Virus record (IMG/VR): IMGVR_UViG_3300034166_000560 | From: a virus | Direction: 5' to 3' (one strand) | DNA length: 64,000 nucleotides | Shown: piece after piece, positions 17,715 to 57,622 of the stretch | Position numbering within the stretch: the first letter of the stretch is position 1 | Layout of the letters: every line of letters begins with the position of its first letter | Notes under the pieces: generated by a model | What the model was told of the DNA's origin: nothing | Database searches by the model: none | Seen by the model: only the letters and a program-made list of their open reading frames with translations | Translations under genes and position numbers: made by a program

Positions 17715-17791
17715 TGGCGGTCCCGGAAGGATTCGAACCCTCGACCTTGGGAGTAGAAATCCCCTGCTCTATCCAGCTGAGCTACGGAACC
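17715..17791 (-). tRNA. tRNA-Arg(TCT)
   Basis: GGTTCCG TA GCTC..GAGC A GGGGA TT-TCT-AC TCCCA AGGTC GAGGG TTCGAAT CCTTC CGGGACC G CCA cloverleaf with encoded CCA. Confidence 0.92.
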
Positions 17792-17824
17792 ATTATTAGT
17801 ATTATAACCTAGCAGAATTGAAAA

Positions 17825-18135
17825 GGCAAGTTGTTTCTGTTTCTAGGGACAACTTGCGAACCCCAATGGATCATGCAGCTAGTGCATAAGCTCCAAATGA
17901 TGCATCATTATCGTTTGCATCTACGTTTCGCCTTTGGTCTCCTTACGACCTTACTGAATCCTGTCGAACCTGAATCGCCCCCATCAAAGATACACCGATT
18001 ATCATATCCCATCGGCTAGCACGATATAAGACCACACAAACGACCTCGGTGGCTGATGTATCTATGGTGGAGGCGGTGGGAACTGCCCCCACGTCCAAGA
18101 AACCTATGTTTCGTCTCTCAACGACCTCGGCAAAC
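17825..18135 (-). ncRNA. ssrA: Circularly permuted (two-piece) tmRNA; tag ANDNDASFGAYALAA*
   Basis: Acceptor piece ends ..GTGGG GGCAGTT CCCAC CGCCTCC A CCA at 18065; coding piece starts GGGGGCG at 17982 (G3.U70 Ala determinant); tag ORF 17918-17871; outer boundaries approximate. Confidence 0.9.
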
Positions 18136-18136
18136 T

Positions 18137-19702
18137 TTATTTATAAATGTTATCTCTAAGGTATTCGTAGTGATTGGGAAGAGTTTTAATGTATTGTTTC
18201 AACGCTGCTTGATGATTAAGCCAACTATATTTGATATCATGTAACTCATTAGCTAATTTTGGGTTTCGTTTCATATCGATATTATGATCCATCTTAGTAA
18301 CAAAACTGTAATTACCTGCCGCCAGAACTCTATGATAACTAAAGTTGCCTTCTTTCATTTTCAATTTTTCTGGATCAGTTGATTGGTTTTGATCATAAAG
18401 ATCTCTAAACAATTTACTAAAATAATCCCCTTCATGGTTATGATTCATAGCATTGGTTCTATGCTTCCAATAAGGAGAATCTTCTCTTTGAGAGAGAAAA
18501 TATTGCGCTGTTACCCAATCTTTGGCTTCTGAGGCTTCTTTAATTACGTAATGGTTATAATATTCTCTATCAAAGTTTTTTACATGACAATCCGTATTAA
18601 GGAGGATACGAGCAATATTCTCAATCATAGATTGAGTCAAAAATAACCCTGTAGATCTCAGAGGTCCAATGAACGCACAAGAAAGCCCAACTGCAATAAC
18701 ATTTTTATACCAAGGAGCCTTTCTAACTCCTGGAGTGAATTTCATAGAACGAAATTCTAAACCGTCCGCCCTTGAACCATATCTTTTTCTTATACTTTCA
18801 CGTAGTTCCTCTTTAGCCGATTCTTCGTTGGTATGATTACTGCTATAAACATAGCCAGAACCAATTCTATCCCAAATTGGAATATTCCACTCCCATCCAC
18901 TATCTAACGCTACACAATCTGTGAAACTAACCATTTCTTCTTTTTTACATTCGTAAGGAATATTGGTCGCAATCGCTCTATCGTTTACAAGAACTTCTGA
19001 AAAATCTATTAATCCTATTTTCAACCCTTGTTCTAATAGAATAGATCTAAACCCAGAACAGTCAATATAAAGATCTGCAGTTAGTGGTCCATTCTCATTA
19101 GTCTCTAAACATGTGATACCATTGTCATCAGTCCGAATAGCATAAATGTCATCGATGATATGTTTAACACCGTTCGGAATAGCGACAAGGTCTTTTAACA
19201 TCAATCCAAATTTATAAGCGTCGAAATGATACGCTTTTTCTATATTAGGATTCCATTTCATTGGTCCTGGTTTGTCAGTATATTTGTTTTGAAGAACCAT
19301 ATGATAGTTGTCATCAAAAAATTCAGGAAAATCAAAAGGCTGGAATAAATCTGGATATTGATGACAAAGGTTATAGAATAATTTAATATCTCTCATAGGG
19401 ACTGGAGGCGTAATCCCCTTAGTCAAATCATAAAAACTTTTACCCTTCTGATAAAAGTCTGTTAGCCTAATGGTTGTTTTATAAACAGCGTCACACTTTG
19501 GCATCCAAATTTGTTCTGGGATACCAAATGGTTTCATAAACCTATTGATGTTTACTAAACTTGATTCTCCAACGCCAATAATTGGAACGTTTGTGGACTC
19601 TATCAGAGTAATGTTAACATTAGGTACATTTTTAGACAAAAGGGCAGCAGTCATCCAACCAGATGATCCGCCGCCCACAATCATAATACTTTTAACTTTC
19701 AT
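18137..19702 (-). CDS. Flavin-dependent tryptophan-halogenase-family protein (divergent)
   Basis: GGGSSGW, IGVGES, YK, AYHFDA, DCSGF, WEWNIP; FIGPLRSTG instead of FxEPLESTG. Confidence 0.85.
   Translation of the reverse strand: MKVKSIMIVGGGSSGWMTAALLSKNVPNVNITLIESTNVPIIGVGESSLVNINRFMKPFGIPEQIWMPKCDAVYKTTIRLTDFYQKGKSFYDLTKGITPPVPMRDIKLFYNLCHQYPDLFQPFDFPEFFDDNYHMVLQNKYTDKPGPMKWNPNIEKAYHFDAYKFGLMLKDLVAIPNGVKHIIDDIYAIRTDDNGITCLETNENGPLTADLYIDCSGFRSILLEQGLKIGLIDFSEVLVNDRAIATNIPYECKKEEMVSFTDCVALDSGWEWNIPIWDRIGSGYVYSSNHTNEESAKEELRESIRKRYGSRADGLEFRSMKFTPGVRKAPWYKNVIAVGLSCAFIGPLRSTGLFLTQSMIENIARILLNTDCHVKNFDREYYNHYVIKEASEAKDWVTAQYFLSQREDSPYWKHRTNAMNHNHEGDYFSKLFRDLYDQNQSTDPEKLKMKEGNFSYHRVLAAGNYSFVTKMDHNIDMKRNPKLANELHDIKYSWLNHQAALKQYIKTLPNHYEYLRDNIYK
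18138..18145 (-). promoter_or_regulatory. T4-type late promoter upstream of tmRNA
   Basis: Exact TATAAATA on the minus strand immediately 5' of the tmRNA acceptor piece. Confidence 0.65.
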
Positions 19703-23499: not shown

Positions 23500-24428
23500 T
23501 TACTCCTCTACGGGCTGCTCTTCTTTTTTAGCGGATTTACGATCTACATCTTTAAAATTTTCTGGATGCTTTAAGACACCAGCCAGAAATTCAACAGCTT
23601 CTTTAATTTCTTCGCTGTTATAATTAGCAGCGATTCTTTCTTCTCTTAGATATGCACTCAAAAGACAATAAGCCTCGTTGACTGCATAATAACTAATCTT
23701 GTCATCAATAAACATGAACCCTCCTGTTACTTCTTAAAAGAGAAATAAGAATCTATTACTTTGCATAACTGGGGTTCAAGTGCATCATAATGCTCTTTGT
23801 CCATAATACCGCAAAGAATATCTTGATAATCGTCTATATCTAAGAACTGTTTACATAGTTCTAAGAAATCTTGTCTCGTTTTTGGTTCCTCAACAGGCAC
23901 ACCATGAATGTTGGGGCCAGAATAAAATTTAAGATCTTCTGCAATATGTCTAGCAATAACAAGTTTTGCTTTATCGACATACTCTTTCATTGCCTGTAGT
24001 TCTAGTTCTTTTTTAGATTTAGGAAAAGGAATAACCTCTGCAGTCATCGCCCGAACTCCTTAGTGTCTTTGGCGACACATCTCACTTTAATATAATAATT
24101 ATCGCCTATTTTTGGCGAAAAGGCAAGTTTTGCGGCTCGCTCATAAGATTCCTGGATGCATGACATCGGCGTGTTTTTGATCTCTCCCATAACAATCGTC
24201 GTGTCTCTTCCGCCTTCTTTACATTCCACAGGAGAGAGTAGAGAGTTACAAATAAGAATAACTGGAACATATTCGATCATCCTTGACACTTAACGCCGAA
24301 TTTAGCTTCGACACCCATTACTTTACCATGAAGGGTGCCAATATGACAAGCCTTCGGTTCAATCTCTACATGTTGTTCTTGGCAAACACCACTAACGCAC
24401 ATGAATACAATCGCTGCAACTAACTTCA
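23500..24428 (-). other. Cluster of small hypothetical ORFs (23500-23715, 23727-24047, 24044-24289 and a short Cys-rich ORF)
   Basis: Packed co-directional ORFs with GGAG RBSs. Confidence 0.55.
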
Positions 24429-24953
24429 TAATAAATCTCCTAATACACGGAACTTGTAAGCAATACTTATCCTCATAGATTTACAATGAACCGTGGGTTC
24501 GAGTGGACAATGCGGCATTTTAGAATCAAACAATACTGCCGAATTGCTTTTTGGAAAGATGTTTTCTATAATCTTTCCGCCATATTCCATAAGAATTAAA
24601 TGCCCACCGTATTCTGGCTTCCAGTTCTTATGGTAATAATACACCAAAGTATAATACTCGCCCTCTGCATTTTCTAACACATCAACATGAGGATGACCAC
24701 ATTGACCATGAGTGTTACCATTAGCGTATATCTTAATAGTTTCTATTTGTTTGTTTAAAAACTTTTGTATTTTTGATTTGAATAGATTTTCTATTATTTC
24801 TGAAGGCAGGGTTTTATCCCAATGGTAAGTAGGCTCTGGGATCTCAGGCACTGATGAGCCCACCAATTCCCAATTATATTTTTTGAATTCTTCGTCGAGA
24901 AGAACCATTTCTTCTTGTGAAAAGAATTCCTCATCGACGAAGATGTTTCGCAT
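24426..24953 (-). CDS. 2OG-Fe(II) oxygenase (prolyl-hydroxylase-like)
   Basis: HPHVD (HxD), T.VYY...W..EYGG.L, LFD...PH, R.SIA. Confidence 0.85.
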   Translation of the reverse strand: MRNIFVDEEFFSQEEMVLLDEEFKKYNWELVGSSVPEIPEPTYHWDKTLPSEIIENLFKSKIQKFLNKQIETIKIYANGNTHGQCGHPHVDVLENAEGEYYTLVYYYHKNWKPEYGGHLILMEYGGKIIENIFPKSNSAVLFDSKMPHCPLEPTVHCKSMRISIAYKFRVLGDLL

Positions 24954-25561
24954 TAGACTTGAAACTTAAACGTTCCTGTAATACTTGTTCTATATGTATC
25001 ATTCGCAAAACAAGGTCTAACGCCATGTTGCATTTCACAAGGAAATAAGATAAAATTATTTTCCCAATCTTCATTAACAGGAATAATATATTCCTTCGGA
25101 CGCCCCAAAACATCTGTATAATATAACGAGAAATTAGAAGTCATTTCTTCTGTTGGTTTGACAAAAGAAGGAGGAGCCTTAATACCTAAATTCATCCAAA
25201 TAATGAACGAAAAGATACCATCATGTTTATGTGGGAGATTACATTCATGTCTATCGAGAAAATTAGCCATCAAAGTGTCCAAAACCAATGGCGCTCCATT
25301 CGTTAGGTAATTGATTTCTTTCTCGTAGCCAAACGTGTTAAGATAAGCGGAAACGTATGGCAGCAATAACTTTTCTGCATGATGCTTTGTTCTTTCGAGA
25401 TAGTAATCTTTTTGGATTACTCTTCTTCCAGTAGATCTTAGTTCTTCTTTTACATCCGGTAATTCTAAAATTTCATTCTTAATCGGAGCTAGATCTCCAT
25501 CAGAAAACTCTGACTGAATGAATCCGTAATTAGGAAACGTATTAACAACATATTCTTGCAT
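24953..25561 (-). CDS. 2OG-Fe(II) oxygenase-like protein
   Basis: NLPHKHDG.FSF, ILFP...H.V.P......R.S. Confidence 0.75.
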   Translation of the reverse strand: MQEYVVNTFPNYGFIQSEFSDGDLAPIKNEILELPDVKEELRSTGRRVIQKDYYLERTKHHAEKLLLPYVSAYLNTFGYEKEINYLTNGAPLVLDTLMANFLDRHECNLPHKHDGIFSFIIWMNLGIKAPPSFVKPTEEMTSNFSLYYTDVLGRPKEYIIPVNEDWENNFILFPCEMQHGVRPCFANDTYRTSITGTFKFQV

Positions 25562-25563
25562 AA

Positions 25564-25749
25564 TTATTTTACCTCATTTTTAATTTGCACAAAATACTTT
25601 TTCAGTTCAGGAGAAGCATTAGATAATGTAGATCCACAAACTCCTATACGAATCAATTCTGACAATTCAATTATGTCTTTAACTGTGATAGTATCATCTG
25701 GTTTAAACTCAAACAAATTAGATTGGTTGTATTTTGTTGGTTTCTTCAC
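25564..25749 (-). CDS. Hypothetical protein
   Basis: ORF with AGGA RBS downstream of the tRNA. Confidence 0.5.
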   Translation of the reverse strand: MKKPTKYNQSNLFEFKPDDTITVKDIIELSELIRIGVCGSTLSNASPELKKYFVQIKNEVK

Positions 25750-25764
25750 AATATATCCTTTTAG

Positions 25765-25840
25765 TGGTGCTGCCGGAGAGATTCGAACTCCCGACCTGAT
25801 GATTACTAATCAACTGCTCTACCAACTGAGCTACGGCAGC
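25765..25840 (-). tRNA. tRNA-Thr(AGT)
   Basis: GCTGCCG TA GCTC AGTTGGTA GAGC A GTTGA TT-AGT-AA TCATC AGGTC GGGAG TTCGAAT CTCTC CGGCAGC A CCA; G1-C72/C2-G71 and G35U36 fit Thr. Confidence 0.88.
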
Positions 25841-26418
25841 ATTAACACGTCGTCGCTTTTGACCGTCATATCAATTTTATTAAAAAACGCAGTAAAAGTC
25901 AATCTTGAATTTTCATTTTCTCCGAAACCACACATAGCACTATGATTAAATTTAGATTTATACAAGACTAATCTATTATAGATGTTTTCAATATACTCTA
26001 CTTTATTATCGTCTTTAAATATCATCGTTCCGCTATTCAAAGGAGGATTTTTATTAAGATATACCACTCCCGCATATATACATCTAGCGTCTGTGTGTAT
26101 CCAAGAATTCTCAAAAATACAATCTTTATCTAATCTATGGAAGTAAAAAGTCCCTTCCCAATTGTAATTATATGAGAATTTATCATATGCTCCTAAGAAA
26201 CAACCATTAAAAATGTCATGTACCAGAAGATCAGTTTTTTCTTTATTTTCTAAAGAAGTTTTGTGTAAAGGGTATGTTCTTTTACCTTTCCAATATGTTC
26301 TTCTTTCATCATTAAATTTCTGAGTATCATTCTGAAAAAATTTTAAAGTGTTCGCCCACTTAACAATCTCATCAGGATAAAGAAAGACATTATCAATCAC
26401 ATATATGTCTTTTAGCAT
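25831..26418 (-). CDS. 2OG-Fe(II) oxygenase-like (DUF6445-type)
   Basis: VIDN....PD, W.G.RT, WIHTD, AGVVYLN...P.NSGT, NRLVLY....H, RLT..FF. Confidence 0.8.
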   Translation of the reverse strand: MLKDIYVIDNVFLYPDEIVKWANTLKFFQNDTQKFNDERRTYWKGKRTYPLHKTSLENKEKTDLLVHDIFNGCFLGAYDKFSYNYNWEGTFYFHRLDKDCIFENSWIHTDARCIYAGVVYLNKNPPLNSGTMIFKDDNKVEYIENIYNRLVLYKSKFNHSAMCGFGENENSRLTFTAFFNKIDMTVKSDDVLMLP

Positions 26419-26830
26419 CTATCAACCTTAATACATTTTCAATGTCGTCTTGATCAAATTTCGTAATACGTATCTCGTATTTATCTGGCTCTTCAAATAT
26501 CTTGTTGGTGTCTTCGTATCTACCTTCTTTGATAGTATCCATCCAGATAGTTATGTCTGGTTGGAAGAAACTTCTATACAGATTTCTTGGACAAACAAAA
26601 TCACAAATAGCAATAATATCATTCTTACAACAAATCTCAGCATTCTGGGTCATACGACACAACTGACGAAATCTACCGATGTCTGAGAAATCCCAATCAT
26701 CGTAGAATTCTCTCATCTCATCGCCATTGTATAAAGCGACTAATTCGTTTTTATCGTTAAGGACATCAAACAATTTGTTAGCAAATGTGGTCTTCCCGCT
26801 TCCAGGAAGTCCAGTCACAAGTATTTTCAT
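26393..26830 (-). CDS. Adenylylsulfate-kinase-like (CysC-type) P-loop kinase
   Basis: ILVTGLPGSGKTT, NGD..R...DWDFS..GR, DFVCP, FEEP. Confidence 0.75.
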   Translation of the reverse strand: MKILVTGLPGSGKTTFANKLFDVLNDKNELVALYNGDEMREFYDDWDFSDIGRFRQLCRMTQNAEICCKNDIIAICDFVCPRNLYRSFFQPDITIWMDTIKEGRYEDTNKIFEEPDKYEIRITKFDQDDIENVLRLIDAKRHICD

Positions 26831-28434
26831 CAGTCTGTACCGTGGATATGTTCTTTTAGATAATCATACATTGTAGGACAATCTTTGACTATTTCCTTCC
26901 ACTCAGCCTTTTTCTTATCTAGGTTATCAGCAGCTAATTTATATTTTTCTTTCCACTCTTCTTTGCATATATCATTATACGCATACAAAGAATTGTTATC
27001 AGTTGGAAAATAATTCATACCAGAAGAAATAAATGGTATACCGCCCAAACCAGTAAAACCATAATTTTCCATTCTAGCGTCTGCAGCCCTAGTAAAACCA
27101 CTTACTTCGCTTGTGTCTACCTTCTTTGTTATTGATCCAAAGTCTCTTTTACCGATATCTCTCCAATATGGAGTATCGTCTCTGTGAGACAAAGCGTAGT
27201 GTAATGCAACGAAATCTGCAAAAGCCTTGAAGTATCTTCTACAAGCATAATTATAAACGTCAATGTCCCACTGGCTCACATAACCTTCTGAATCTCTACC
27301 AAGAATACGAATCATTCTCATCAAAAATTCATGAATGCTAAGAAGTCCATTACTCTCAAGCGGCTCAATGAATCCCGCAGACAATCCAATAGCTGCTACG
27401 TTCTTGACCCAAATGCGCTCGTGGATACCAACACGTGATTTGATATTCTTAAATTTAATTCCTTGGTTATTAAAATCCATCTCGTCATCAAAATGACCAG
27501 TGCTACGGAGATATTGTTTAAACTCTTCTAGAGCATCTTCATCACTGATGTATTTGTCTGAATAAACATATCCTGTTCCCAAACGATTCCACAATGGGAT
27601 TGTCCACACCCAACCATTATTAATAGCGTGGCAGTTGGTATATGTAATCATTTCCTTACGCTTATCAACATAAGGAATCTGAGCAGCCCAAGCAGAATTG
27701 TTTGGTAGAATATCGCTCATAGAAATGAACGGTTCGTTTAGAGCTCCAGCTAAAAGAATAGATTTGAAACCAGTGCAATCAATGAACAAATCGGCGGTGA
27801 CTTTTTCGCCATTATCTAGCTGAAGAAAGTTGATACCGTTCTCATCATCAAAATCAACCATCTTTACTTCAGCTAGTATATTCTTAACACCACGTGGAAT
27901 AGCGTATTCTGTTCTTAACCAATTAGCAAACTTGACAGCATTAAAATGATAAGCTGTGTCTTTTCTGAAATTGAAGTTTGGTAATACACCTTCTGAGTTT
28001 TCAAAAATTTTATTTTCATTAACCAACGCCATGATTGGACACATACAATCTGCATAATCACTATTAGGCGTTTCTGGGTAAAGGAACTTTTTAAAATACC
28101 AATCATTTAATACAGCAACATTACCATCAGTATTGGTAGAACCAAACGGATAATGAAACGCTCCAGCGCCTTTTTTATAAAAGTCCTCGAATCTAATAGA
28201 AAGTTTATACGTTGCATCTGTAATTTTCATGAAATCTTTGTCTTCGATCTCAAGAAGTTTTAACCAAGAATTAATAAAACCTAATGTTGACTCTCCAACA
28301 CCAACAGTTGGAATATTTGGCGATTCAATTAGAGTAATATTTTTATTAGGAAAAACTTTGATCAAAGTGGCTGCAGCCATCCATCCAGCTGAACCACCAC
28401 CAACGATGACAATCTTATCAATTTTCTTAGTCAT
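26830..28434 (-). CDS. Flavin-dependent tryptophan-halogenase-family protein
   Basis: GGGSAGW, VGVGEST, ATYKLSIRF (catalytic K), DCTGF, WVWTIP, FIEPLESNG. Confidence 0.9.
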   Translation of the reverse strand: MTKKIDKIVIVGGGSAGWMAAATLIKVFPNKNITLIESPNIPTVGVGESTLGFINSWLKLLEIEDKDFMKITDATYKLSIRFEDFYKKGAGAFHYPFGSTNTDGNVAVLNDWYFKKFLYPETPNSDYADCMCPIMALVNENKIFENSEGVLPNFNFRKDTAYHFNAVKFANWLRTEYAIPRGVKNILAEVKMVDFDDENGINFLQLDNGEKVTADLFIDCTGFKSILLAGALNEPFISMSDILPNNSAWAAQIPYVDKRKEMITYTNCHAINNGWVWTIPLWNRLGTGYVYSDKYISDEDALEEFKQYLRSTGHFDDEMDFNNQGIKFKNIKSRVGIHERIWVKNVAAIGLSAGFIEPLESNGLLSIHEFLMRMIRILGRDSEGYVSQWDIDVYNYACRRYFKAFADFVALHYALSHRDDTPYWRDIGKRDFGSITKKVDTSEVSGFTRAADARMENYGFTGLGGIPFISSGMNYFPTDNNSLYAYNDICKEEWKEKYKLAADNLDKKKAEWKEIVKDCPTMYDYLKEHIHGTD

Positions 28435-29634
28435 TTAATTTCCTTTATAATCTATAGAACTTTTACGGCTACGTCTAGTTTCTTCAACGCCATTAGTGTC
28501 GGAATCGTATTCTTCATTAACTGATTTTAAAATTGAAACTTTATAATACTGTTCGTTTGGTTTGGATACAGGAACGTTCTCGCCACAAGTTCGGGCGCAA
28601 ACTTTCAATTTTTCTTCTCCCCAATATTCTTTATGCCAATCAATAGATTGCCACTCATAGCCATCCAAAACATCTTTTAAGGATTTAACCCTCAAGTCAT
28701 TTCCAAAATTTTTCTCAATTCTTTCAATAAACTTTAACTTTTGATTATCTATTTCTCTAATCATATTAATAAATCTAGAGTCACGATCATCGTTATTTGG
28801 TAATTTCTTTACTGGAAATTTAGCGCCAACTCCAATATAACAACATGGGAACATTTTCTGCCAAGCATCAATATATACTTCTTTGTTCTGGAGAACAGGA
28901 CAATTAATAACAGATCTATCGATGTAGTCATTATATCTATCACTGAACTCAAAATCAAGATATTTCATGTCTTGATCGGAGGAAGAAGGTTCTAGATAAT
29001 GCGTAACATTTCCTTGTTTATCTACTACTTTCATTTTCTTGGTGTTAAAAAACCTTAGAGTTTTTCTGGCGACAAATCTAGCAAATCCTAATTCTTTGGC
29101 TATTTTCTCACATTCTTGTTCTTGATGTTCGTTATGTTTAAACGATAGAAACACCCATACAGCGTTTCCGCCAGCTTCTATGAAAGATTTAGCATTACGT
29201 ATAATTGTTTCGTATTTTGTTCCGATACGATGTAGATGGTGAGTGTCCTCTAGTCCATCAATTGCGAAATAAACGTCGCTAACCTTTGGCATAACTTTGG
29301 CTAATTGAGCCCACCACTCTGGTTTACGGGCACCACCATTTGTATGGATTCTTATATTAATCTTTGGATTGACAAATGAAGTATATTCGATCATATCAAT
29401 TAGATCGTCGTTTAACATAGGGTCTCCATAATTTCCAGAGAACCTAAGAAATTCCATCTGTTTTAAAACGTCTTCATTGAGAATTCTTCTATAATCTTCA
29501 AATTTCCAAGAAATAATAGGCAAGCCAGGATTTACAATTTCACCATTAATATTTCTGGCGCACATTGGACATGCAGCCTGACAATTACTAGTAATCTCTA
29601 AATGCGCTGCTCGAAGTTGATCAAATCTAAACAT
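28435..29634 (-). CDS. Radical SAM enzyme with C-terminal Twitch/SPASM-like Cys
   Basis: CQAACPMC (CxxxCxxC), GNYGDP, HTNG, IDG, C..(PCC)..C...C. Confidence 0.9.
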   Translation of the reverse strand: MFRFDQLRAAHLEITSNCQAACPMCARNINGEIVNPGLPIISWKFEDYRRILNEDVLKQMEFLRFSGNYGDPMLNDDLIDMIEYTSFVNPKINIRIHTNGGARKPEWWAQLAKVMPKVSDVYFAIDGLEDTHHLHRIGTKYETIIRNAKSFIEAGGNAVWVFLSFKHNEHQEQECEKIAKELGFARFVARKTLRFFNTKKMKVVDKQGNVTHYLEPSSSDQDMKYLDFEFSDRYNDYIDRSVINCPVLQNKEVYIDAWQKMFPCCYIGVGAKFPVKKLPNNDDRDSRFINMIREIDNQKLKFIERIEKNFGNDLRVKSLKDVLDGYEWQSIDWHKEYWGEEKLKVCARTCGENVPVSKPNEQYYKVSILKSVNEEYDSDTNGVEETRRSRKSSIDYKGN

Positions 29635-29636
29635 TT

Positions 29637-30374
29637 TTATTCACCGCTGAATGGACACCCTCGTTTTTCATTTCTTTTTAAGATGGTTTTGATTTTTCTC
29701 CATCCATAGAAACTATATGCTGGGGAGTTGACCTTTTTCTGATATTCGCCCTTAGTTAATAGATGAACTTTATGTTTGAGTTTCTTTTCACTAAGTGGTA
29801 TGACATGCACCATAGGCGTACCTATAGGAATTATATACTGATCTTGTTTTCTAGGAACCATAATAAAGAAATTGCCAGAAGAAGCCAAATTAAAATTAAC
29901 AACGCCTGGTAAAACTTTTATATCATATTCACCAAGAGCCCATTCCGCTCCAACAAATAGAAAATTTATGTTTTCTTTACAATTAAACAACCATGGAGAT
30001 CTCATCTTTAAATTGAAATATTTTGAAAATGCATTTCCGTATTGTTCAGGGTTGTGAGAAACTGGATCAGGTGGTGAAGAGAAAAAACACTGAAAGTTGT
30101 TTACGTCAGTCTTAAACCCCATATCACACCATGATTCAATCACAACGCCTTTCTTATAGAATTCTAAAAATCCATAACAAGACCTTAAATTTCTATGTCT
30201 TGATTCTAGATTATCAAAATCTAAATCGACCGGAGTTTCTGGAATTGGAATATTGTTAAACCATTCAGGTTTAGTTAATGAAGCATTCACAATGGGAGTA
30301 TATTTGTTGACATTCCCATCGCTTGTGAAACAATCTAAATGAATTACTGGAGTTTTGTGAAAAAATGTAAACAT
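29637..30374 (-). CDS. Hypothetical protein of the modification cluster
   Basis: P.WF, C.GF...K.G, K..SPW, LPGV, I..GTP..H.IP (dUTPase-like beta pattern), C-terminal CPF. Confidence 0.6.
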   Translation of the reverse strand: MFTFFHKTPVIHLDCFTSDGNVNKYTPIVNASLTKPEWFNNIPIPETPVDLDFDNLESRHRNLRSCYGFLEFYKKGVVIESWCDMGFKTDVNNFQCFFSSPPDPVSHNPEQYGNAFSKYFNLKMRSPWLFNCKENINFLFVGAEWALGEYDIKVLPGVVNFNLASSGNFFIMVPRKQDQYIIPIGTPMVHVIPLSEKKLKHKVHLLTKGEYQKKVNSPAYSFYGWRKIKTILKRNEKRGCPFSGE

Positions 30375-31189
30375 TAGTAAGCACTTATCTTCACTGTTGG
30401 TTTGGTTTCATTATCTTTTTGTTTACCGAAATAAATTTCAGCAGGTTTATGATCTCTTAATAATTTAAACTTATTGATACCTAGTTCCATGAATGGTTCT
30501 TTTTCCCAGGTATGATTAACCCCATCATAATTGTAGTCATACTTAGGGTCTTTTTGTGAACATTCGTATCGAATACCTTTGTCCCCTCTATTAAACTTAG
30601 AGAAAAACCCATAACACAATTTAGCTGGACATGTAAATGCGCATCCAGTAACTAGAAACAATCTAAGTCGCTGTCTAACTTCCTTATCTAAGGAAGAAAG
30701 CAATTCTAAATTAGTATTAAATGCTGCTGGTAGAGGAACAACAGTATCATATAATTCCAGAGATTTGTGTAGAGTGTAAACGTCTGAAATTTCTTTAATG
30801 ACTGATGCTTCTAGTTTATAGAGAGGAAAATCTCTTCGTATCCATTTGGCCAAATTATTTTTAACACAAATGATTGAATTGCCTTCACGATGATATTTTT
30901 CAAGAAACGGAATGGCTTCTTTATAAAGGTCTTCTGTAACCAACGAGGAAGTCAGCGGAATGCGATAACCAATTCCTTGATTATACATCCACTGTATATC
31001 TTGTTCTACCAATTCTGGTGAATTTTCTAGATAAGGTCTGCCACCGTATATTCTGCACGGAAAATCTGAGAATGCAAATACTGAATCGATTCTATTCAAT
31101 TCAATATCTGGAAATCCTTTTGAAAGGAAATCACTTATATGTTGATTTGGTAATTTAGCTCGACCAGATACGGTATACGTATAATCCAT
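30374..31189 (-). CDS. U32-peptidase/Fe-S-like protein (tentative)
   Basis: YGGR, ASV, GC...CP Cys cluster and terminal GI.KFKL reminiscent of U32-family TIM barrels. Confidence 0.45.
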   Translation of the reverse strand: MDYTYTVSGRAKLPNQHISDFLSKGFPDIELNRIDSVFAFSDFPCRIYGGRPYLENSPELVEQDIQWMYNQGIGYRIPLTSSLVTEDLYKEAIPFLEKYHREGNSIICVKNNLAKWIRRDFPLYKLEASVIKEISDVYTLHKSLELYDTVVPLPAAFNTNLELLSSLDKEVRQRLRLFLVTGCAFTCPAKLCYGFFSKFNRGDKGIRYECSQKDPKYDYNYDGVNHTWEKEPFMELGINKFKLLRDHKPAEIYFGKQKDNETKPTVKISAY

Positions 31190-31216
31190 TCACTGCCTCC
31201 ATTGAATATATCATAT

Positions 31217-31608
31217 TTATTCCTCGAGGCGCTGGACCATAATATGCGAACTCATTGCTCCACAAAGAGCAATCATTGCACATACGAAGTTAATAGTTGA
31301 TTCTGGTAACACAAGCATGAAAAATGCATTGGTTGTCAGAAAGAATACATTAATACGGAACATCCAACGATGGAACCTTGGATCGTTTAGCAATTCTTCC
31401 TCCATTACAGGTCAATATCTTCGAAAAAGTCTTCAAGAAGAGCCTGGAACTTCTCAGTAAAGCCATATGCCTTGTAATCTTTATACAGTTCTTTTAACTC
31501 ATGGACGTCACCAAGCTCACCACGAATGACCGTATAACCACGATCCTGGAGCTCATCAACCAGATCATTATCGTCGAATTCGGTCATACTAACTTCTACA
31601 TAAGCCAT
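31217..31608 (-). other. Two small hypothetical ORFs (31217-31405 membrane; 31405-31608 acidic)
   Basis: Coupled ORFs (TAATG) with RBS. Confidence 0.55.
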
Positions 31609-31661
31609 ATTATTTCTCCTTCAAGAAAGATAACCAATCATACTATAGTTTTTGAGAAATT

Positions 31662-32264
31662 TCAAATATATTTTTTCCAATCATACTCAACATCTCCATA
31701 ATAAAGATCGTCTTTTTCTCCGTAATCAATTATTAGATGAATACGGTTTTGATCGGAATCGTTTCTACCAGAGTGAGGTATGTTATTATTGAATTCGACG
31801 AGATCTCCAACTTTCATATTCAGAGATTCGTTAACAGAGGGAAACTTAAAAATAACATTTTCGTTTGTAAAAATGGGAATATGAATACGAATTGTGTTTT
31901 CATAATGATACATATAATCTATGTGCTCGGGAATAACGCTATGAGCTTTCATATTATTGAGGGTAATTCTTTTTATCTGTTTATTAGAATAATGACGATT
32001 GAATATTTCTGTAATCTTATCGATTTCATACTCAAAAAGTATTAACAGCTGTTTGTTAACAATAGTATTCTGAAGTATTATATTTTGTTTCTCAGGAAGT
32101 GTGAACAGAAAGATCATATCCAATGATTGGATTTTATTCATCTCATTCCAAGGAGGGCCAGGATCGTAGCAATAACTTTCCCAGCCCTTATTTAATATGT
32201 AATTGGTTTTATCGATCAACGATTTAGGGTCAATATGTCCTAAAATATTATAAGCAGAATTCAC
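31662..32264 (-). CDS. Aspartyl/asparaginyl beta-hydroxylase-like 2OG-Fe(II) enzyme
   Basis: I.EHID, RIHIPI.TN, G...EFNN...H...N.....RIHLIID. Confidence 0.85.
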   Translation of the reverse strand: MNSAYNILGHIDPKSLIDKTNYILNKGWESYCYDPGPPWNEMNKIQSLDMIFLFTLPEKQNIILQNTIVNKQLLILFEYEIDKITEIFNRHYSNKQIKRITLNNMKAHSVIPEHIDYMYHYENTIRIHIPIFTNENVIFKFPSVNESLNMKVGDLVEFNNNIPHSGRNDSDQNRIHLIIDYGEKDDLYYGDVEYDWKKYI

Positions 32265-32267
32265 AGA

Positions 32268-32843
32268 TTACTTTCCTATTGTAATCATTCCAACCAACTT
32301 CTTCATCAATTGTTCGTCTGGGACATCTGGCTTTCCACCAGAAGCGCTATGAAGGTCGATACCGATAACTTTGGCCAAATCCATAACTTCATCAAAATAC
32401 AAGTTTGGTTTACTTTCCTGCCATGCTTTTACGTCAACATTCCAGTAGTAAGTTTTACCATCTTCTGGTTTCGGAATTGGTGGAACAAGAGATAAAGTAT
32501 TTTCATCAAAAACCCAATCGCTTAGATCTGGGTTAATACGTTTGTATTTTTTAATTATTTCATCTCTTTCTTCTTTGTTCATTCTATGGATGTGGTGCAC
32601 TTCATGCCATGTTTCTTGACCATATTCCTCTGAGAGTTCTGGACTATGTTCGTAATCCAAATATTCATATTTTTCGTATGGGTGTAATTCTGGAACAGGA
32701 ACCTTAACGAACTTAACAAATCCTTTTGGTGGATTAGTAGGATCAAACCCTTCGATCAAATCTGCAAGGTTTTGCTCTAGAATTGGATGTGACTCTGGTC
32801 TACCATTTTCATCCAGTTTTATGAATAGTGATTGTTCTGACAT
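32268..32843 (-). CDS. Tail-fibre-associated protein (tentative)
   Basis: W.FDE.....PPIPKP.DG..Y.W......W motif commonly found next to phage fibre genes. Confidence 0.5.
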   Translation of the reverse strand: MSEQSLFIKLDENGRPESHPILEQNLADLIEGFDPTNPPKGFVKFVKVPVPELHPYEKYEYLDYEHSPELSEEYGQETWHEVHHIHRMNKEERDEIIKKYKRINPDLSDWVFDENTLSLVPPIPKPEDGKTYYWNVDVKAWQESKPNLYFDEVMDLAKVIGIDLHSASGGKPDVPDEQLMKKLVGMITIGK

Positions 32844-32845
32844 TT

Positions 32846-33532
32846 TTAACTCCAAACTGATACGTATACTGCGCCAGTGCCACCTGTGCCGCCATTATGA
32901 TAGCCTCCGCCACCACCTCCACCAACGTAGATGCTAGCTGTTGTAGCGTATCCAGGACCATTAACACCCTTTGTCCAAGAAGCAGTTACACGACCACCAC
33001 CGCCACCAGCACTTCCATTACCTCCAGAACAACCGAAAGCAGTTCCACCAGAACCACCTCCGCCTCCACCACCAGTAATTACATCTCCGCCATAACCGCC
33101 ACCAGCACCACCACCAGAGCCACCATAAGCTGTTACATCAATACCACCAACACGATAGTAACTAGAACCTCCGGCACCACCGCCTTCACCACCACGTCCA
33201 TTACAGCAGTATGCAAAGAAACAGAATTGCCCACACCATCCAGTACAAGTGTCGGATCCGGAACCTCCATTTCCTCCACCACCGCCACCTCTGACGTCAG
33301 CACTCATATATTGATATGAAGGTACAACAAGAGAATACGCTCCTGAAGAAGTATACGAATAACTGTTATTAGCTGGTTTTGAGTAACCGTCTGTTATTGC
33401 TATTTGTCCAGAAGTCTTTTCCAACAAATATCTGATATCAGAATCATTTAGCCCAGACGCTGCTCCAGCATTGGCATATACAATAGCCGCTATTTGAGAA
33501 AACGATATTTGGCCAGAAGATGGTAATGCCAT
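32846..33532 (-). CDS. Gly-rich adhesin/fibre-tip-like protein with an embedded Cys/aromatic loop
   Basis: MALPSSGQISFSQI..ISI-type N-terminus, repeated GGGGG motifs as in gp38-like polyglycine adhesins, loop DTCTGWCGQFCFFAYCCNG. Confidence 0.7.
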   Translation of the reverse strand: MALPSSGQISFSQIAAIVYANAGAASGLNDSDIRYLLEKTSGQIAITDGYSKPANNSYSYTSSGAYSLVVPSYQYMSADVRGGGGGGNGGSGSDTCTGWCGQFCFFAYCCNGRGGEGGGAGGSSYYRVGGIDVTAYGGSGGGAGGGYGGDVITGGGGGGGSGGTAFGCSGGNGSAGGGGGRVTASWTKGVNGPGYATTASIYVGGGGGGGYHNGGTGGTGAVYVSVWS

Positions 33533-33742
33533 TTAATTATCCTTATTGGTGTTTTCTGTATCAGCACCCCATTTATTTAAAGGACATGTCGAATTCGGTA
33601 AAAAGGTCTTAAACAACATGACACAACCACATTCTTTACATTGTGTGGTTGTGTCATTATATTTGTCACATTCTAGACAGATCAGCAAACGTTTTTTTGC
33701 TATAGCCTTACGATGCTTCACTGTTTCGTCAATAATAGTCAT
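33533..33742 (-). CDS. Small Cys-rich metal-binding protein (DUF6171-like)
   Basis: R...C..C.......C..CGC....K......CP..KW; late-promoter-like AATAAATA at 33785-33778. Confidence 0.75.
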   Translation of the reverse strand: MTIIDETVKHRKAIAKKRLLICLECDKYNDTTTQCKECGCVMLFKTFLPNSTCPLNKWGADTENTNKDN

Positions 33743-34054
33743 AACCGCCCTATACAGAAGAGTCTTATTTTATAGACTATTTATTCACAGTTCTTACTCT
33801 TAGAGACGGTCTACGCCTTAAACCCTATAATCAACTCGCAATCACTGACACCACTAAAGGTGCAGTAATTGACAACCCCGACACAGCACCAATGGTTCCT
33901 AGAAAGGGATCCATAGGGACCATTTTCTAGATCATGGTAATAGATCATTTCTTAACAGTCCTAAGAAACTCAAGATATTTGGCAAGAGAGATATATCCCT
34001 GGACCATCAAGAGTTCCATAGCAGCGATTTTAGCTTCAATCTTTTCTTTATCAG

Positions 34055-54003: not shown

Positions 54004-54672
54004 ATGTTACATTTTCCAGCATTTTGTATTGACAATTTTTATAACAATCCAGACGCTATTAGAGAATACGCTCTATCTCTGGATTTTAATAACATTGGGC
54101 CATGTCAGGGCAGACGAACCGCTCCGCTACACGAAATTAATCCAGAATTTTCCGATGTTTTTGCTAAACAGTTGCTATCTGTATTTTACGATATGGGTAG
54201 GAACGATGTTCAATGGATGATCAGATCTCATTTCCATTTACACAGAGTAACAGACAATTCTACGTTTGCTAAGAACACAGATCAAACGCTTCACGTTGCT
54301 CACAAATATAGAGATTTCGTTCCTAGCTATGAATCAGAGATACCTACTGCTGTCCATTTAGACGATAACAGTTTTTTCTCTGGCGTGGTTTATTTGAATC
54401 CTATTGCCGAGCCTCATGCTGGAACTGCCATTTATAGAGTTGTAGAAAACACTGATCCTATCAGATATGGTAATGGAGATATCGAAAAAGAAACTGTAAT
54501 AGAATCTGCTAATTTCAAACAGGTATATAATCGTTTGGTTGTTTTTGATGGCAAATCATACCATGGAAGAACAGGCGACAACACGCAAAGCGAAAGGCTA
54601 ACTCACGTTTTCTTTGCGCATCGTATAAACGCCAATATTCCAACACCATTAAATAGATTTAAGGTTTTGTGA
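54004..54672 (+). CDS. 2OG-Fe(II) oxygenase-like (DUF6445-type) paralogue 1
   Basis: IDNFY.NPD.IR.YAL, VH.D, GVVYLN, GT, YNRLV.FDG..H, RLT.VFF. Confidence 0.8.
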   Translation: MLHFPAFCIDNFYNNPDAIREYALSLDFNNIGPCQGRRTAPLHEINPEFSDVFAKQLLSVFYDMGRNDVQWMIRSHFHLHRVTDNSTFAKNTDQTLHVAHKYRDFVPSYESEIPTAVHLDDNSFFSGVVYLNPIAEPHAGTAIYRVVENTDPIRYGNGDIEKETVIESANFKQVYNRLVVFDGKSYHGRTGDNTQSERLTHVFFAHRINANIPTPLNRFKVL

Positions 54673-55332: not shown

Positions 55333-55887
55333 ATGAAGTTTCCATTATTTTGTATTGATGATTTTTATGAAAATCCAGAAGCTATTAGAGAATACGCTCT
55401 TGGATTAGAGTATGAAGATCAAACTCCATATGATAAAAGATCTCAATGTCTATCTGAAATAAATCCAGAGTTATTCTCCAGATTTTGCGATAAACTATTT
55501 TCTGTTTTTTACGACTCACCCGTTAGGTATAAAGTATATACAGCTTTCCATATTCATTTCAGAAAAAGCGATGATCCTGATTCTCCTGACAATAATGGTT
55601 TACTACACAAAGACCCAAATGTGTTGATGGGCGGTGTTATATATTTGACACCTAATCCAAATCCAAAAGCTGGAACGACTGTATATAAATCTTTTGAAAA
55701 GCCTCTTGAAGAGGTAATTACTTTCCAAAACAAATATAATAGACTTATAGGTTTTGACGGTAGCAGATATCCTCATAGAGTCACCACTAGGTATATAGAA
55801 AATGATTATAGATTATCGCAAGTATTTTTTATAGAGTTTATGCCGAAAAATACAGTTTTTCCGCTAGAAAGGTTACCGAAAATATGA
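55333..55887 (+). CDS. 2OG-Fe(II) oxygenase-like (DUF6445-type) paralogue 2
   Basis: IDDFYENPEAIREYAL, LH.D, GVIYL, NRLI.FDG...H, RL.QVFF. Confidence 0.8.
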   Translation: MKFPLFCIDDFYENPEAIREYALGLEYEDQTPYDKRSQCLSEINPELFSRFCDKLFSVFYDSPVRYKVYTAFHIHFRKSDDPDSPDNNGLLHKDPNVLMGGVIYLTPNPNPKAGTTVYKSFEKPLEEVITFQNKYNRLIGFDGSRYPHRVTTRYIENDYRLSQVFFIEFMPKNTVFPLERLPKI

Positions 55888-56516
55888 AAAAATTTCCTAC
55901 TTTTTGCGTTGATGATTTTTATGAATATCCAGACGAGGTTAGAGAATTCGCTCTTCAACAAACATTTCATAAAATGCCAAGTTGTATCGGATTGAGAACT
56001 TCTCCTATGAAAGACGTTCAACCAGAATTTGACGACTATTTCAATAAAAAATTACTATCTATGTTTTATGATATATTAGATCCTTCTTTACAGTATATCG
56101 TCAAAAACGTTTTTCATAAAAATTATCCAGTAGAAAGTAAAAATTATACTCTCTATAAACCAGAAGAGTTATTATGGGGTAGCCGATATGGTGGAACATT
56201 TCGTAGTGATAATAACGCTCATCTGGATCCAAATAATGTCATTTCTGGAGTTATATTTTTAAATAAAGATGAAGAAATGCACGCAGGGGTGGCTATCTAT
56301 AGACCAGTAGAATATTCTGATGAACATGATGGCGCATTGTTACAAGAGACAGCCAGATTTTCTCAAATCTTTAATAGGCTGGTAGCTTTTGACGGCGAGA
56401 CTTGGCATGGAAGAGTTGGTGATAACACAAGAGAAGATAGATTATGTCAGGTGTTCTTTGTTCAACATGTTTCTGATCAGCTTTCTCCTATAGAAAAAAT
56501 GAGACAGATAGTATGA
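55884..56516 (+). CDS. 2OG-Fe(II) oxygenase-like (DUF6445-type) paralogue 3
   Basis: VDDFYEYPDEVREFAL, AHLD, GVIFLN, NRLVAFDG..WH, RL.QVFF. Confidence 0.8.
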   Translation: MKKFPTFCVDDFYEYPDEVREFALQQTFHKMPSCIGLRTSPMKDVQPEFDDYFNKKLLSMFYDILDPSLQYIVKNVFHKNYPVESKNYTLYKPEELLWGSRYGGTFRSDNNAHLDPNNVISGVIFLNKDEEMHAGVAIYRPVEYSDEHDGALLQETARFSQIFNRLVAFDGETWHGRVGDNTREDRLCQVFFVQHVSDQLSPIEKMRQIV

Positions 56517-56854: not shown

Positions 56855-57622
56855 ATGAGTACAGTAACTACTACAAGCGCTGCAGTTGCAGCAAAGTCAG
56901 ATGTCGTTGATCTCCGTGGAATGTGGATTGGGCTTGCCCTTCTAAACACATTCTATCTCATTGTCCGTATCTATGAACAAGTGTTCGGCTGGAGGGCTGG
57001 ACTTGATTCATTTGCGCCCGAGTTTCAGACATATTGGATGTCTATTCTCTGGACAGAGATTCCGCTTGAGTTAGTCTCAGGACTAGCACTTGCTGGTTAT
57101 CTTTGGAAGACAAGAGATCGAGATATTGACGCCGTGACTCCTCGTGAGGAAATGCGTCGTCTAGTAGTTCTTGTTCAGTGGCTTGTTGTGTATGCTGCTG
57201 CCATTTATTGGGGCGCATCCTTCTTTACTGAACAGGATGGTACATGGCATATGACTGTTATTCGTGATACTGACTTTACTCCAAGTCATATCATTGAGTT
57301 CTACATGTCATATCCAATTTATAGCGTAATTGCAGTTGGCGCTTTCTTCTATGCAAGAACTCGTATCCCATACTTCTCACATGGTTACAGCCTTGCATTC
57401 TTGATTGTCGCTATTGGACCATTTATGATTATTCCAAACGTTGGACTCAACGAATGGGGTCATACTTTCTGGTTCATGGAAGAACTATTCGTAGCACCAT
57501 TGCATTGGGGCTTCGTATTCTTCGGCTGGATGGCACTTGGTGTGTTCGGCGTTGTTCTCCAAATCCTAGGACGTGTTCATGCTTTGCTAGGGCGTGATGG
57601 CGTTAAGTTACTAGCAGAATAA
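56855..57622 (+). CDS. pmoC: Particulate methane monooxygenase subunit C (auxiliary metabolic gene)
   Basis: YEQ.FGWRAGLDSFAPEFQTYW, WGASFFTEQDGTWH...RDTDFTPSHIIEFY, PNVGLNEWGHTFWFMEELFVAPLHWGFV; all metal ligands present; Methylocystaceae-like N-terminus; no pmoA/B alongside. Confidence 0.97.
   Translation: MSTVTTTSAAVAAKSDVVDLRGMWIGLALLNTFYLIVRIYEQVFGWRAGLDSFAPEFQTYWMSILWTEIPLELVSGLALAGYLWKTRDRDIDAVTPREEMRRLVVLVQWLVVYAAAIYWGASFFTEQDGTWHMTVIRDTDFTPSHIIEFYMSYPIYSVIAVGAFFYARTRIPYFSHGYSLAFLIVAIGPFMIIPNVGLNEWGHTFWFMEELFVAPLHWGFVFFGWMALGVFGVVLQILGRVHALLGRDGVKLLAE

Follow-up and report, generated by a model that had tools for sequence, protein, structure and literature searches.

A candidate fibre-tip module with a conserved cysteine hairpin beside an enzyme gene cassette in a T4-like pmoC phage

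The locus and its phage

The DNA studied is a 64,000-nucleotide stretch of the IMG/VR virus record IMGVR_UViG_3300034166_000560, called here the window. Between positions 33790 and 24426 the minus strand carries genes for a small cysteine-rich protein and for a 228-amino-acid (aa) glycine-rich protein with a cysteine- and tryptophan-containing loop, followed by a train of genes that includes several predicted enzymes. The initial annotation saw in the loop a displayed core like that of a ribosomally synthesised and post-translationally modified peptide (RiPP), tailored by the train as a whole. The locus is probably better described as two separable cassettes: a fibre-tip module with a cysteine-knotted hairpin, and an enzyme set independent of it.

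The window is part of a T4-like myovirus genome, as it contains genes for a gp6-type baseplate wedge protein and for a gp43 DNA polymerase with about 48% identity to marine cyanomyophage polymerases. It also encodes an Hsp20 protein, a carbamoyltransferase and a PmoC/AmoC protein (56855 to 57622; PF04896, E 7e-108). The phage therefore belongs among the large freshwater pmoC phages (PMC7674155). The region has no DNA-level megablast match among isolated phages.

All of the listed genes of the train were confirmed on the minus strand where the initial annotation had placed them, and the 19-residue segment that it had singled out corresponds to residues 94 to 112 of the glycine-rich protein, mapping exactly to 33197 to 33253. 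Most open reading frames (ORFs) of at least 110 aa between approximately 13.8 and 50.4 kb of the window are also on the minus strand, so a shared strand is not a sign of an operon. The proposed late-promoter-like site upstream of the train does contain an ATAAATA heptamer, but this heptamer is not over-represented in the window, with 19 copies counted against 26 expected. The features of the first cassette (33742 to 31662), with the heptamer upstream of it and the spacer that follows, are:

33778 to 33784, minus strand: late-promoter-like heptamer (ATAAATA), located 36 nt upstream of the start codon of DUF6171; a consensus match only
33533 to 33742, minus strand: DUF6171 mini-protein, 69 aa (PF19668), with six conserved cysteines in the pattern CxxC...CxxCxC...CP..KW
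32846 to 33532, minus strand: predicted glycine-rich fibre-tip protein, 228 aa, with an N-terminal docking domain, a tumour necrosis factor (TNF)-like sandwich and a glycine-rich domain
33197 to 33253, minus strand: five-cysteine/tryptophan hairpin, residues 94 to 112 of the glycine-rich protein, between its first two glycine-rich motifs
32268 to 32855, minus strand: p195, downstream partner of the fibre gene, with a likely true start at the ATG at 32843
31662 to 32264, minus strand: 2-oxoglutarate (2OG) oxygenase of the PF05118 (Asp/Arg-hydroxylase) family, 200 aa, with the HxD...H...R set intact
31217 to 31608, minus strand: variable spacer that divides the two cassettes, made up of two small ORFs of 67 and 62 aa

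The glycine-rich protein and its cysteine hairpin

Searches with the whole glycine-rich protein, by tblastn against isolated phages and in the first related-locus search, were empty, probably through low-complexity filtering. The N-terminal 85 residues, used as the query, did retrieve relatives. In all, 31 homologues of the glycine-rich protein were aligned and used for an AlphaFold2 (AF2) model with a mean predicted local distance difference test score (pLDDT) of 90, which was compared by VIA-align with 48,161 representative chains. The top structural match is the tail tip of Mycobacteriophage Bxb1 (9d93_Qa; Z 7.9, root mean square deviation (rmsd) 3.4 over 118 residues, 28% identity) and the second is the fibre protein gp24 of cyanophage Pam3 (7ypx_A; Z 7.3, rmsd 2.9 over 110 residues, 34% identity). 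Z values of 7.3 to 7.9 are middling and give moderate support for a fibre fold. The remaining matches all have 16% identity or less. The model has both the TNF-like sandwich and the paired-glycine-motif domain that characterise the Pam3 gp24 type. A profile of the homologue alignment had no match among the PDB sequences.

Pam3 gp24 is made up of an N-terminal docking helix, a TNF-like domain and a glycine-rich domain, with the chaperone gp25 encoded alongside, and the distal ends of its loops have been proposed as receptor binders (PMC9608196). The two proteins are of similar size (228 aa here and about 250 aa in Pam3). They share the N-terminal docking segment or helix, the TNF-like sandwich and paired GGGGxGG-type motifs with variable distal ends, and in both phages a partner gene is directly downstream of the fibre gene. 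The likeness does not extend to a significant sequence-profile match. Pam3 gp24 is also without the conserved five-cysteine hairpin carried here by the first loop, and the module described here has the additional DUF6171 and 2OG oxygenase genes, while p195 has no fold likeness to any solved chain.

The authors of the Pam3 study themselves compared gp24 with gp38 (PMC9608196). The gp38 proteins of T-even phages and S16 (6F45, PF05268) are likewise small tip proteins with polyglycine motifs alternating with variable loops, encoded directly after a large fibre gene, an arrangement found here in the distant relatives. They differ in that the loop described here, rather than being hypervariable, is conserved among divergent phages that share a host guild. 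The glycine-rich protein has no PF05268 match in a Pfam search at E 0.01, and 6F45 is not among the listed structural matches of its model.

Gene context is consistent with the fold. Among the distant relatives, the homologous gene is located directly behind a 750 to 1200 aa Peptidase_S74 tail-fibre gene and ahead of the neck genes gp13/14/15. The N-terminal 50 to 80 residues are common to 57 distinct proteins that have differing C-terminal parts, which is the modular pattern of receptor-binding proteins. It can therefore be proposed with good confidence, from sequence comparison and modelling, that this is a fibre-tip protein with a predicted role in the virion. The virion adhesin of the initial annotation is very probably correct to this extent, given the fold likeness and the gene neighbourhood of the relatives.

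The 19-residue loop is modelled by AF2 as a beta-hairpin with strands at residues 92–101 and 104–113. No other non-glycine segment of the protein is as well conserved among the 19 closest family members, the majority-residue frequency being 0.83 in the loop and 0.66 to 0.73 elsewhere. There are six conserved cysteines, five of which are within the hairpin (96, 100, 104, 109 and 110) and one in another loop (168). A second loop type has cysteines at 98 and 108 in place of 96 and 110, one symmetric shift on each strand. On the strength of this single evolutionary event and the predicted hairpin, the shift would fit contact of the cysteines across the strands.

More distant relatives have different cysteine patterns, or none, at this location. 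The loop position therefore appears to be a variable tip loop across the family that has become fixed within the pmoC-phage clade. Its location corresponds to that of the distal receptor-binding loops in Pam3 gp24, and the idea of a loop borne on a structural scaffold, between two glycine-rich motifs, agrees with the model. The idea of a chemically diversified tip does not agree with the conservation of the segment. A fibre homologue with a longer loop, of approximately 30 residues and with 11 cysteines on both strands, was also found (locus L116, 588 to 1295). It is in a structural module ahead of gp13/14/15, and a DUF6171 gene comes after its p195 homologue.

Genes that accompany the fibre gene

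Sampling through the fibre gene gave 91 loci for a comparison of gene neighbours. The window shares the gene order DUF6171, fibre, p195, PF05118 oxygenase with L001, L008, L002, L011, L012, L013/14, L030/31 and L117. This four-gene core is shared by at least seven lineages, with fibre identities of 52 to 69% among the loci. The flanks differ, being GP88, PNKP phosphatase, carbamoyltransferase, M15 peptidase or Metallophos protein genes. Of the genes that had been tied to the loop, those for the PF05118 oxygenase and the cysteine-rich mini-protein keep constant company with the fibre gene, unlike the remainder of the train.

Three whole viral genomes, G001, G003 (168.7 kb) and G004 (174.5 kb), were also searched (CheckV completeness 98%, 100% and 100%). 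The pmoC sequences of the window and these genomes are 92 to 98% identical, while polymerase identity to the window falls from 87% (G001) to 65% (G003) and 43% (G004). Another locus with the four-gene core, L002, also carries AmoC/PmoC. Sharing of the module by divergent phages of one host guild, judged from their sequences, would fit a host-tracking role in receptor binding, and it leaves room for the speculative binding of copper by the loop.

Homologues of p195 adjoin the fibre gene in 51 loci, and in nearly all of these they are directly downstream. On its gene position, p195 is a probable assembly chaperone of the fibre.

The oxygenase scores 43.4 bits against the PF05118 cut-off of 22.6 in Pfam. 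Its triad (H114, D116 and H164) and the 2OG-binding R174 are invariant in eight homologues. Of solved structures, the closest to it is an L-proline cis-4-hydroxylase that acts on the free amino acid (4p7w, E 9e-5). The above-cut-off score, the HxD...H triad and the arginine are what it has in common with the aspartyl/asparaginyl beta-hydroxylase family, to which that enzyme also belongs. Unlike family members with a tetratricopeptide repeat (TPR) substrate-binding part, the protein here is a 200-aa catalytic core only. Its conserved place beside the fibre module suggests a function that has to do with the fibre; hydroxylation of the fibre itself may be considered a minority possibility. A literature search on fibre hydroxylation found nothing.

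The DUF6171 mini-protein matches PF19668 with 35.1 bits against a cut-off of 27. In an alignment of 18 sequences, four of its cysteines do not vary and the other two occur in at least 90%. The association of DUF6171 with cysteine-bearing fibres was counted over the 57 distinct fibre-family proteins. Within 2 kb there is a DUF6171 gene for 14 of the 18 proteins that have at least four cysteines, but for only 1 of the 39 that have no more than three (Fisher p = 5e-9, a statistic that ignores shared ancestry). The accompanied fibres are 228, 305, 461 and 577 aa long, and the position of the DUF6171 gene varies, being upstream of the fibre gene or downstream of p195.

Sampling in reverse, through DUF6171, a family with 483 or more loci, gave 45 new distinct loci, in which an adjacent cysteine cluster was taken as a same-strand ORF with at least four cysteines in 40 residues. 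Such an ORF was found at 20 of 44 new loci, and 30% of the ORFs adjacent to DUF6171 have a cysteine cluster, compared with 4% of those at distances above 2.5 kb. A DUF6171-like ORF in cyanophage Sf-FP1 abuts the gene for a 1240-aa virion structural protein that has eight cysteines between residues 795 and 831. Structure prediction of a complex between fibre residues 54 to 228 and DUF6171 scored 0.01 against a mark of 0.32, which speaks neither way. No paper mentioning DUF6171 was found in a literature search.

A family of 545 to 680 aa proteins that start MPG..K..G.W and have 5 to 9 cysteines within 40 residues was seen directly upstream of DUF6171 genes (L135, L138, L144–L147, L149, L154 and L165). 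A protein of approximately 200 aa starting MRGE is usually encoded next, and these loci look like a second fibre-like module around DUF6171.

The enzyme cassette and the interpretation of the locus

The second cassette extends from 31189 to 24426. It follows the spacer and is preceded by a heptamer of its own:

31214 to 31220, minus strand: second ATAAATA heptamer, 25 nt upstream of p271
30374 to 31189, minus strand: p271, divergent U32/PrtC-like, linked elsewhere to APS kinase and sulfotransferase genes
29637 to 30374, minus strand: p245 (phrog_7084), of a family that recurs next to fibre-type genes in other phages
28435 to 29634, minus strand: radical S-adenosylmethionine (SAM) enzyme, 399 aa (PF04055, 43 bits against a cut-off of 29.5), with CX3CX2C at residues 18 to 25
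26830 to 28434, minus strand: VirX1-type flavin-dependent halogenase, 534 aa (PF04820, 362 bits)
26393 to 26830, minus strand: adenosine 5'-phosphosulfate (APS)-kinase-like P-loop kinase, 145 aa (APS_kinase, 42 bits)
25831 to 26418, minus strand: DUF6445-type 2OG oxygenase-like protein (DUF6445/2OG match)
24953 to 25561, minus strand: 2OG-Fe(II) oxygenase p202, 202 aa (phrog_81)
24426 to 24953, minus strand: 2OG-Fe(II) oxygenase 2OG175, 175 aa (PF13640)

The family assignments of the initial annotation are mostly sound. DUF6171, PF05118, Radical_SAM, Trp_halogenase and three further 2OG oxygenases were recovered. The APS_kinase match covers the N-terminal half only (profile positions 5 to 90 of 152) and is far below the NCBIfam equivalog cut-offs. 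The SPASM domain proposed for the radical SAM enzyme was not detected; Pfam gives the Radical_SAM core only, even at E values up to 5, with no RiPP recognition element (RRE)/PqqD-like domain. The U32 assignment of p271 is a lead, as the protein has no Pfam match (including PF01136), one homologue has PF01136, one is named PrtC-like, and a language-model lead in the ESM Atlas covers 16% of a cluster.

The train halogenase matches VirX1 of cyanophage Syn10 (6qgm) over its full length (E 8e-111), retains the GxGxxG and WxWxIP motifs, and is 39 to 47% identical to cyanophage halogenases. Whatever the likeness to VirX1, nothing ties the window halogenase to the fibre loop.

The distribution of these genes separates them from the loop. 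Only in the window and in two close relatives, L001 and L008, were the remaining train genes seen beside the fibre gene. The complete genomes G003 and G004 retain the loop with one or two substitutions and have no PF04820 or PF04055 match, nor any tblastn match to p271, the APS-kinase-like gene, DUF6445, p202 or 2OG175; G004 does retain a p245 homologue, directly upstream of the fibre module. G001 keeps the train but without the radical SAM gene, leaving a gap of only 35 nt between p245 and the halogenase gene. The halogenase family is present in 68 isolated phage records, and the S-B64 copy is between recombination-nuclease and peptidase genes. In the paper on pmoC phages there is no mention of halogenase, radical SAM or 2OG genes (PMC7674155). 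Given that the loop is kept in G003 and G004 without the train enzymes, that G001 lacks the radical SAM gene, and that the enzyme families occur in other contexts, the comparison of sequences indicates that the train is a separate, lineage-specific auxiliary cassette and not a tailoring machine for the hairpin.

A RiPP-like system in which the whole train tailors the loop is accordingly very improbable, being largely refuted by gene distribution. It had in its favour that the genes are co-linear, with little space between them, in the window, L001 and L008, that the tryptophan, cysteine and aromatic residues of the loop are possible enzyme targets, and that VirX1-type halogenases have open active sites accepting bulky substrates (PMC8407142). 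The resemblance to a RiPP cluster, a short cysteine- and aromatic-rich segment near families used in peptide tailoring, ends there. Leader, RRE and SPASM domain are all missing, and the supposed core is a conserved, not diversified, loop inside a folded 228-aa structural protein. The co-variation of loop and enzyme content across related phages that this system led one to expect is not seen: in G003 and G004 the enzymes are missing beside essentially the same loop, and the radical SAM gene, which G001 lacks, is an indel among close relatives. Independent occurrence of the enzymes, which the initial annotation had named as evidence against itself, is found for the halogenase family and for the p271/APS-kinase pair. 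A promoter-like motif and variable small genes also separate the two cassettes. A row of natural-product enzymes beside a peptide-like motif should not be taken as evidence of tailoring before gene distribution has been checked.

A much smaller tailoring system is rather unlikely, but has more to recommend it. In this case the core would be of two enzymes, the PF05118 oxygenase hydroxylating a fibre residue and DUF6171 installing disulfides or metal. The oxygenase is adjacent in at least seven lineages despite otherwise different flanks, its catalytic set is invariant, and DUF6171 co-varies with fibre cysteine content. PF05118-type enzymes hydroxylate Asp or Asn in disulfide-rich epidermal growth factor (EGF) domains and in cinnamycin-type lanthipeptides. 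The loop, however, is without an EGF-type consensus, cysteine-bearing fibres of other types keep DUF6171 with no oxygenase nearby, and the adjacency can be explained by shared descent alone. A related proposal, tentative and on balance unlikely, is that DUF6171 is a dedicated maturation factor for cysteine-clustered receptor-binding tips, either a thiol oxidase/isomerase or a metal inserter, which in the pmoC-phage clade would act with the oxygenase so that the hairpin at the apex of the fibre becomes hydroxylated and knotted by disulfides or metal. If true, a virion adhesin would here have a compact and mobile module for its post-translational maturation, common to unrelated methanotroph phages.

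It is also improbable that the glycine-rich protein is absent from the virion and is an intracellular or secreted cysteine-rich metal binder, for example for copper handling in a pmoC phage, with DUF6171 as a metallochaperone. Every genome with the module also carries pmoC, and both proteins have conserved cysteine clusters. Against this are the resemblance of the fold to fibre and tail-tip proteins and the placing of the homologues within tail-fibre and neck modules; neither a signal peptide nor a known metal-binding family was detected.

The description that is preferred, of two separable cassettes, would have the first encode a tail-fibre tip module built on a small Pam3-gp24-like fibre protein. 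At the first glycine-rich loop's distal end, the five hairpin cysteines and Cys168 would form a six-cysteine beta-hairpin knot, held through cross-strand disulfides or bound metal, and this knot is most likely to be the surface that contacts the receptor of the methanotroph host. The p195 protein would be the assembly chaperone, DUF6171 may be a helper in folding, oxidising or metal-loading cysteine-rich tips, and the oxygenase possibly hydroxylates the fibre. The first cassette would travel as a unit among divergent pmoC phages. The second would consist of lineage-specific auxiliary enzymes, of a type often found in T4-like aquatic phages, which the loop does not require.

Several observations weigh against this description. 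It leans on the presence of the 228-aa protein in the virion, which is predicted from sequence and model, and in the window phage the fibre module is outside the main structural block, amid non-structural genes, a position that would also suit the metal binder. The middling Z values and the shared ancestry behind the DUF6171 statistics have been noted above. The p195 model (pLDDT 85) has no fold match, with Foldseek and VIA-align giving nothing above Z 4 and no solved chaperone. The DUF6171 gene of Stenotrophomonas phage Mendera has no structural neighbours, and the cysteine-bearing fibres of L007 and L028 have no DUF6171 nearby. There is no invariant Asp or Asn in the loop across the oxygenase-linked fibres, and the oxygenase, whose nearest solved relative uses free proline, may have a substrate other than the fibre; these two points also count against the smaller tailoring system. 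The enzymes of the second cassette could still modify the fibre opportunistically in the window lineage.

Some further features of the second cassette and its surroundings were noted. In an unrelated 174-kb phage (L122, 5912 to 8394), Sulfotransfer_3, APS_kinase, p271-like and JmjC genes stand in a row, with RecA and DnaB genes alongside, and in the ESM Atlas the p271 fold is fused to Sulfotransfer_1 in 549-aa bacterial proteins. This row and these fusions point to a sulfation-linked role for the p271-type U32-like family. The p245 family adjoins a fibre-family gene in 12 of 80 loci, mostly directly downstream in the usual place of p195 (L231–L235, L226, L234 and L236), and p245 may be fibre-associated rather than an enzyme.

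A second Trp_halogenase-family gene (18137 to 19702, 521 aa; phrog_2928, E 1e-118) encodes a protein only approximately 35% identical to the train halogenase. Just downstream of it, at 17715 to 18157, ARAGORN identifies a tmRNA with the tag ANDNDASFGAYALAA that overlaps a tRNA-Arg(TCT). A tRNA-Thr (AGT) within the enzyme cassette (25765 to 25840, minus strand) overlaps the last 10 nt, including the stop codon, of the DUF6445-type gene. Two more weak DUF6445-type (2OG-like) genes are near pmoC (54004 to 54672 and 55884 to 56516), and such oxygenases are abundant in the genome outside the train as well.

Receptor-binding tips set which bacteria a phage infects, and almost nothing is known of them where the host is a methane oxidiser. 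The link between DUF6171 and cysteine-clustered fibres gives a testable role to an uncharacterised and widespread phage family. The first cassette is a candidate host-recognition module, common to pmoC phages with polymerases that are only 43 to 65% identical.

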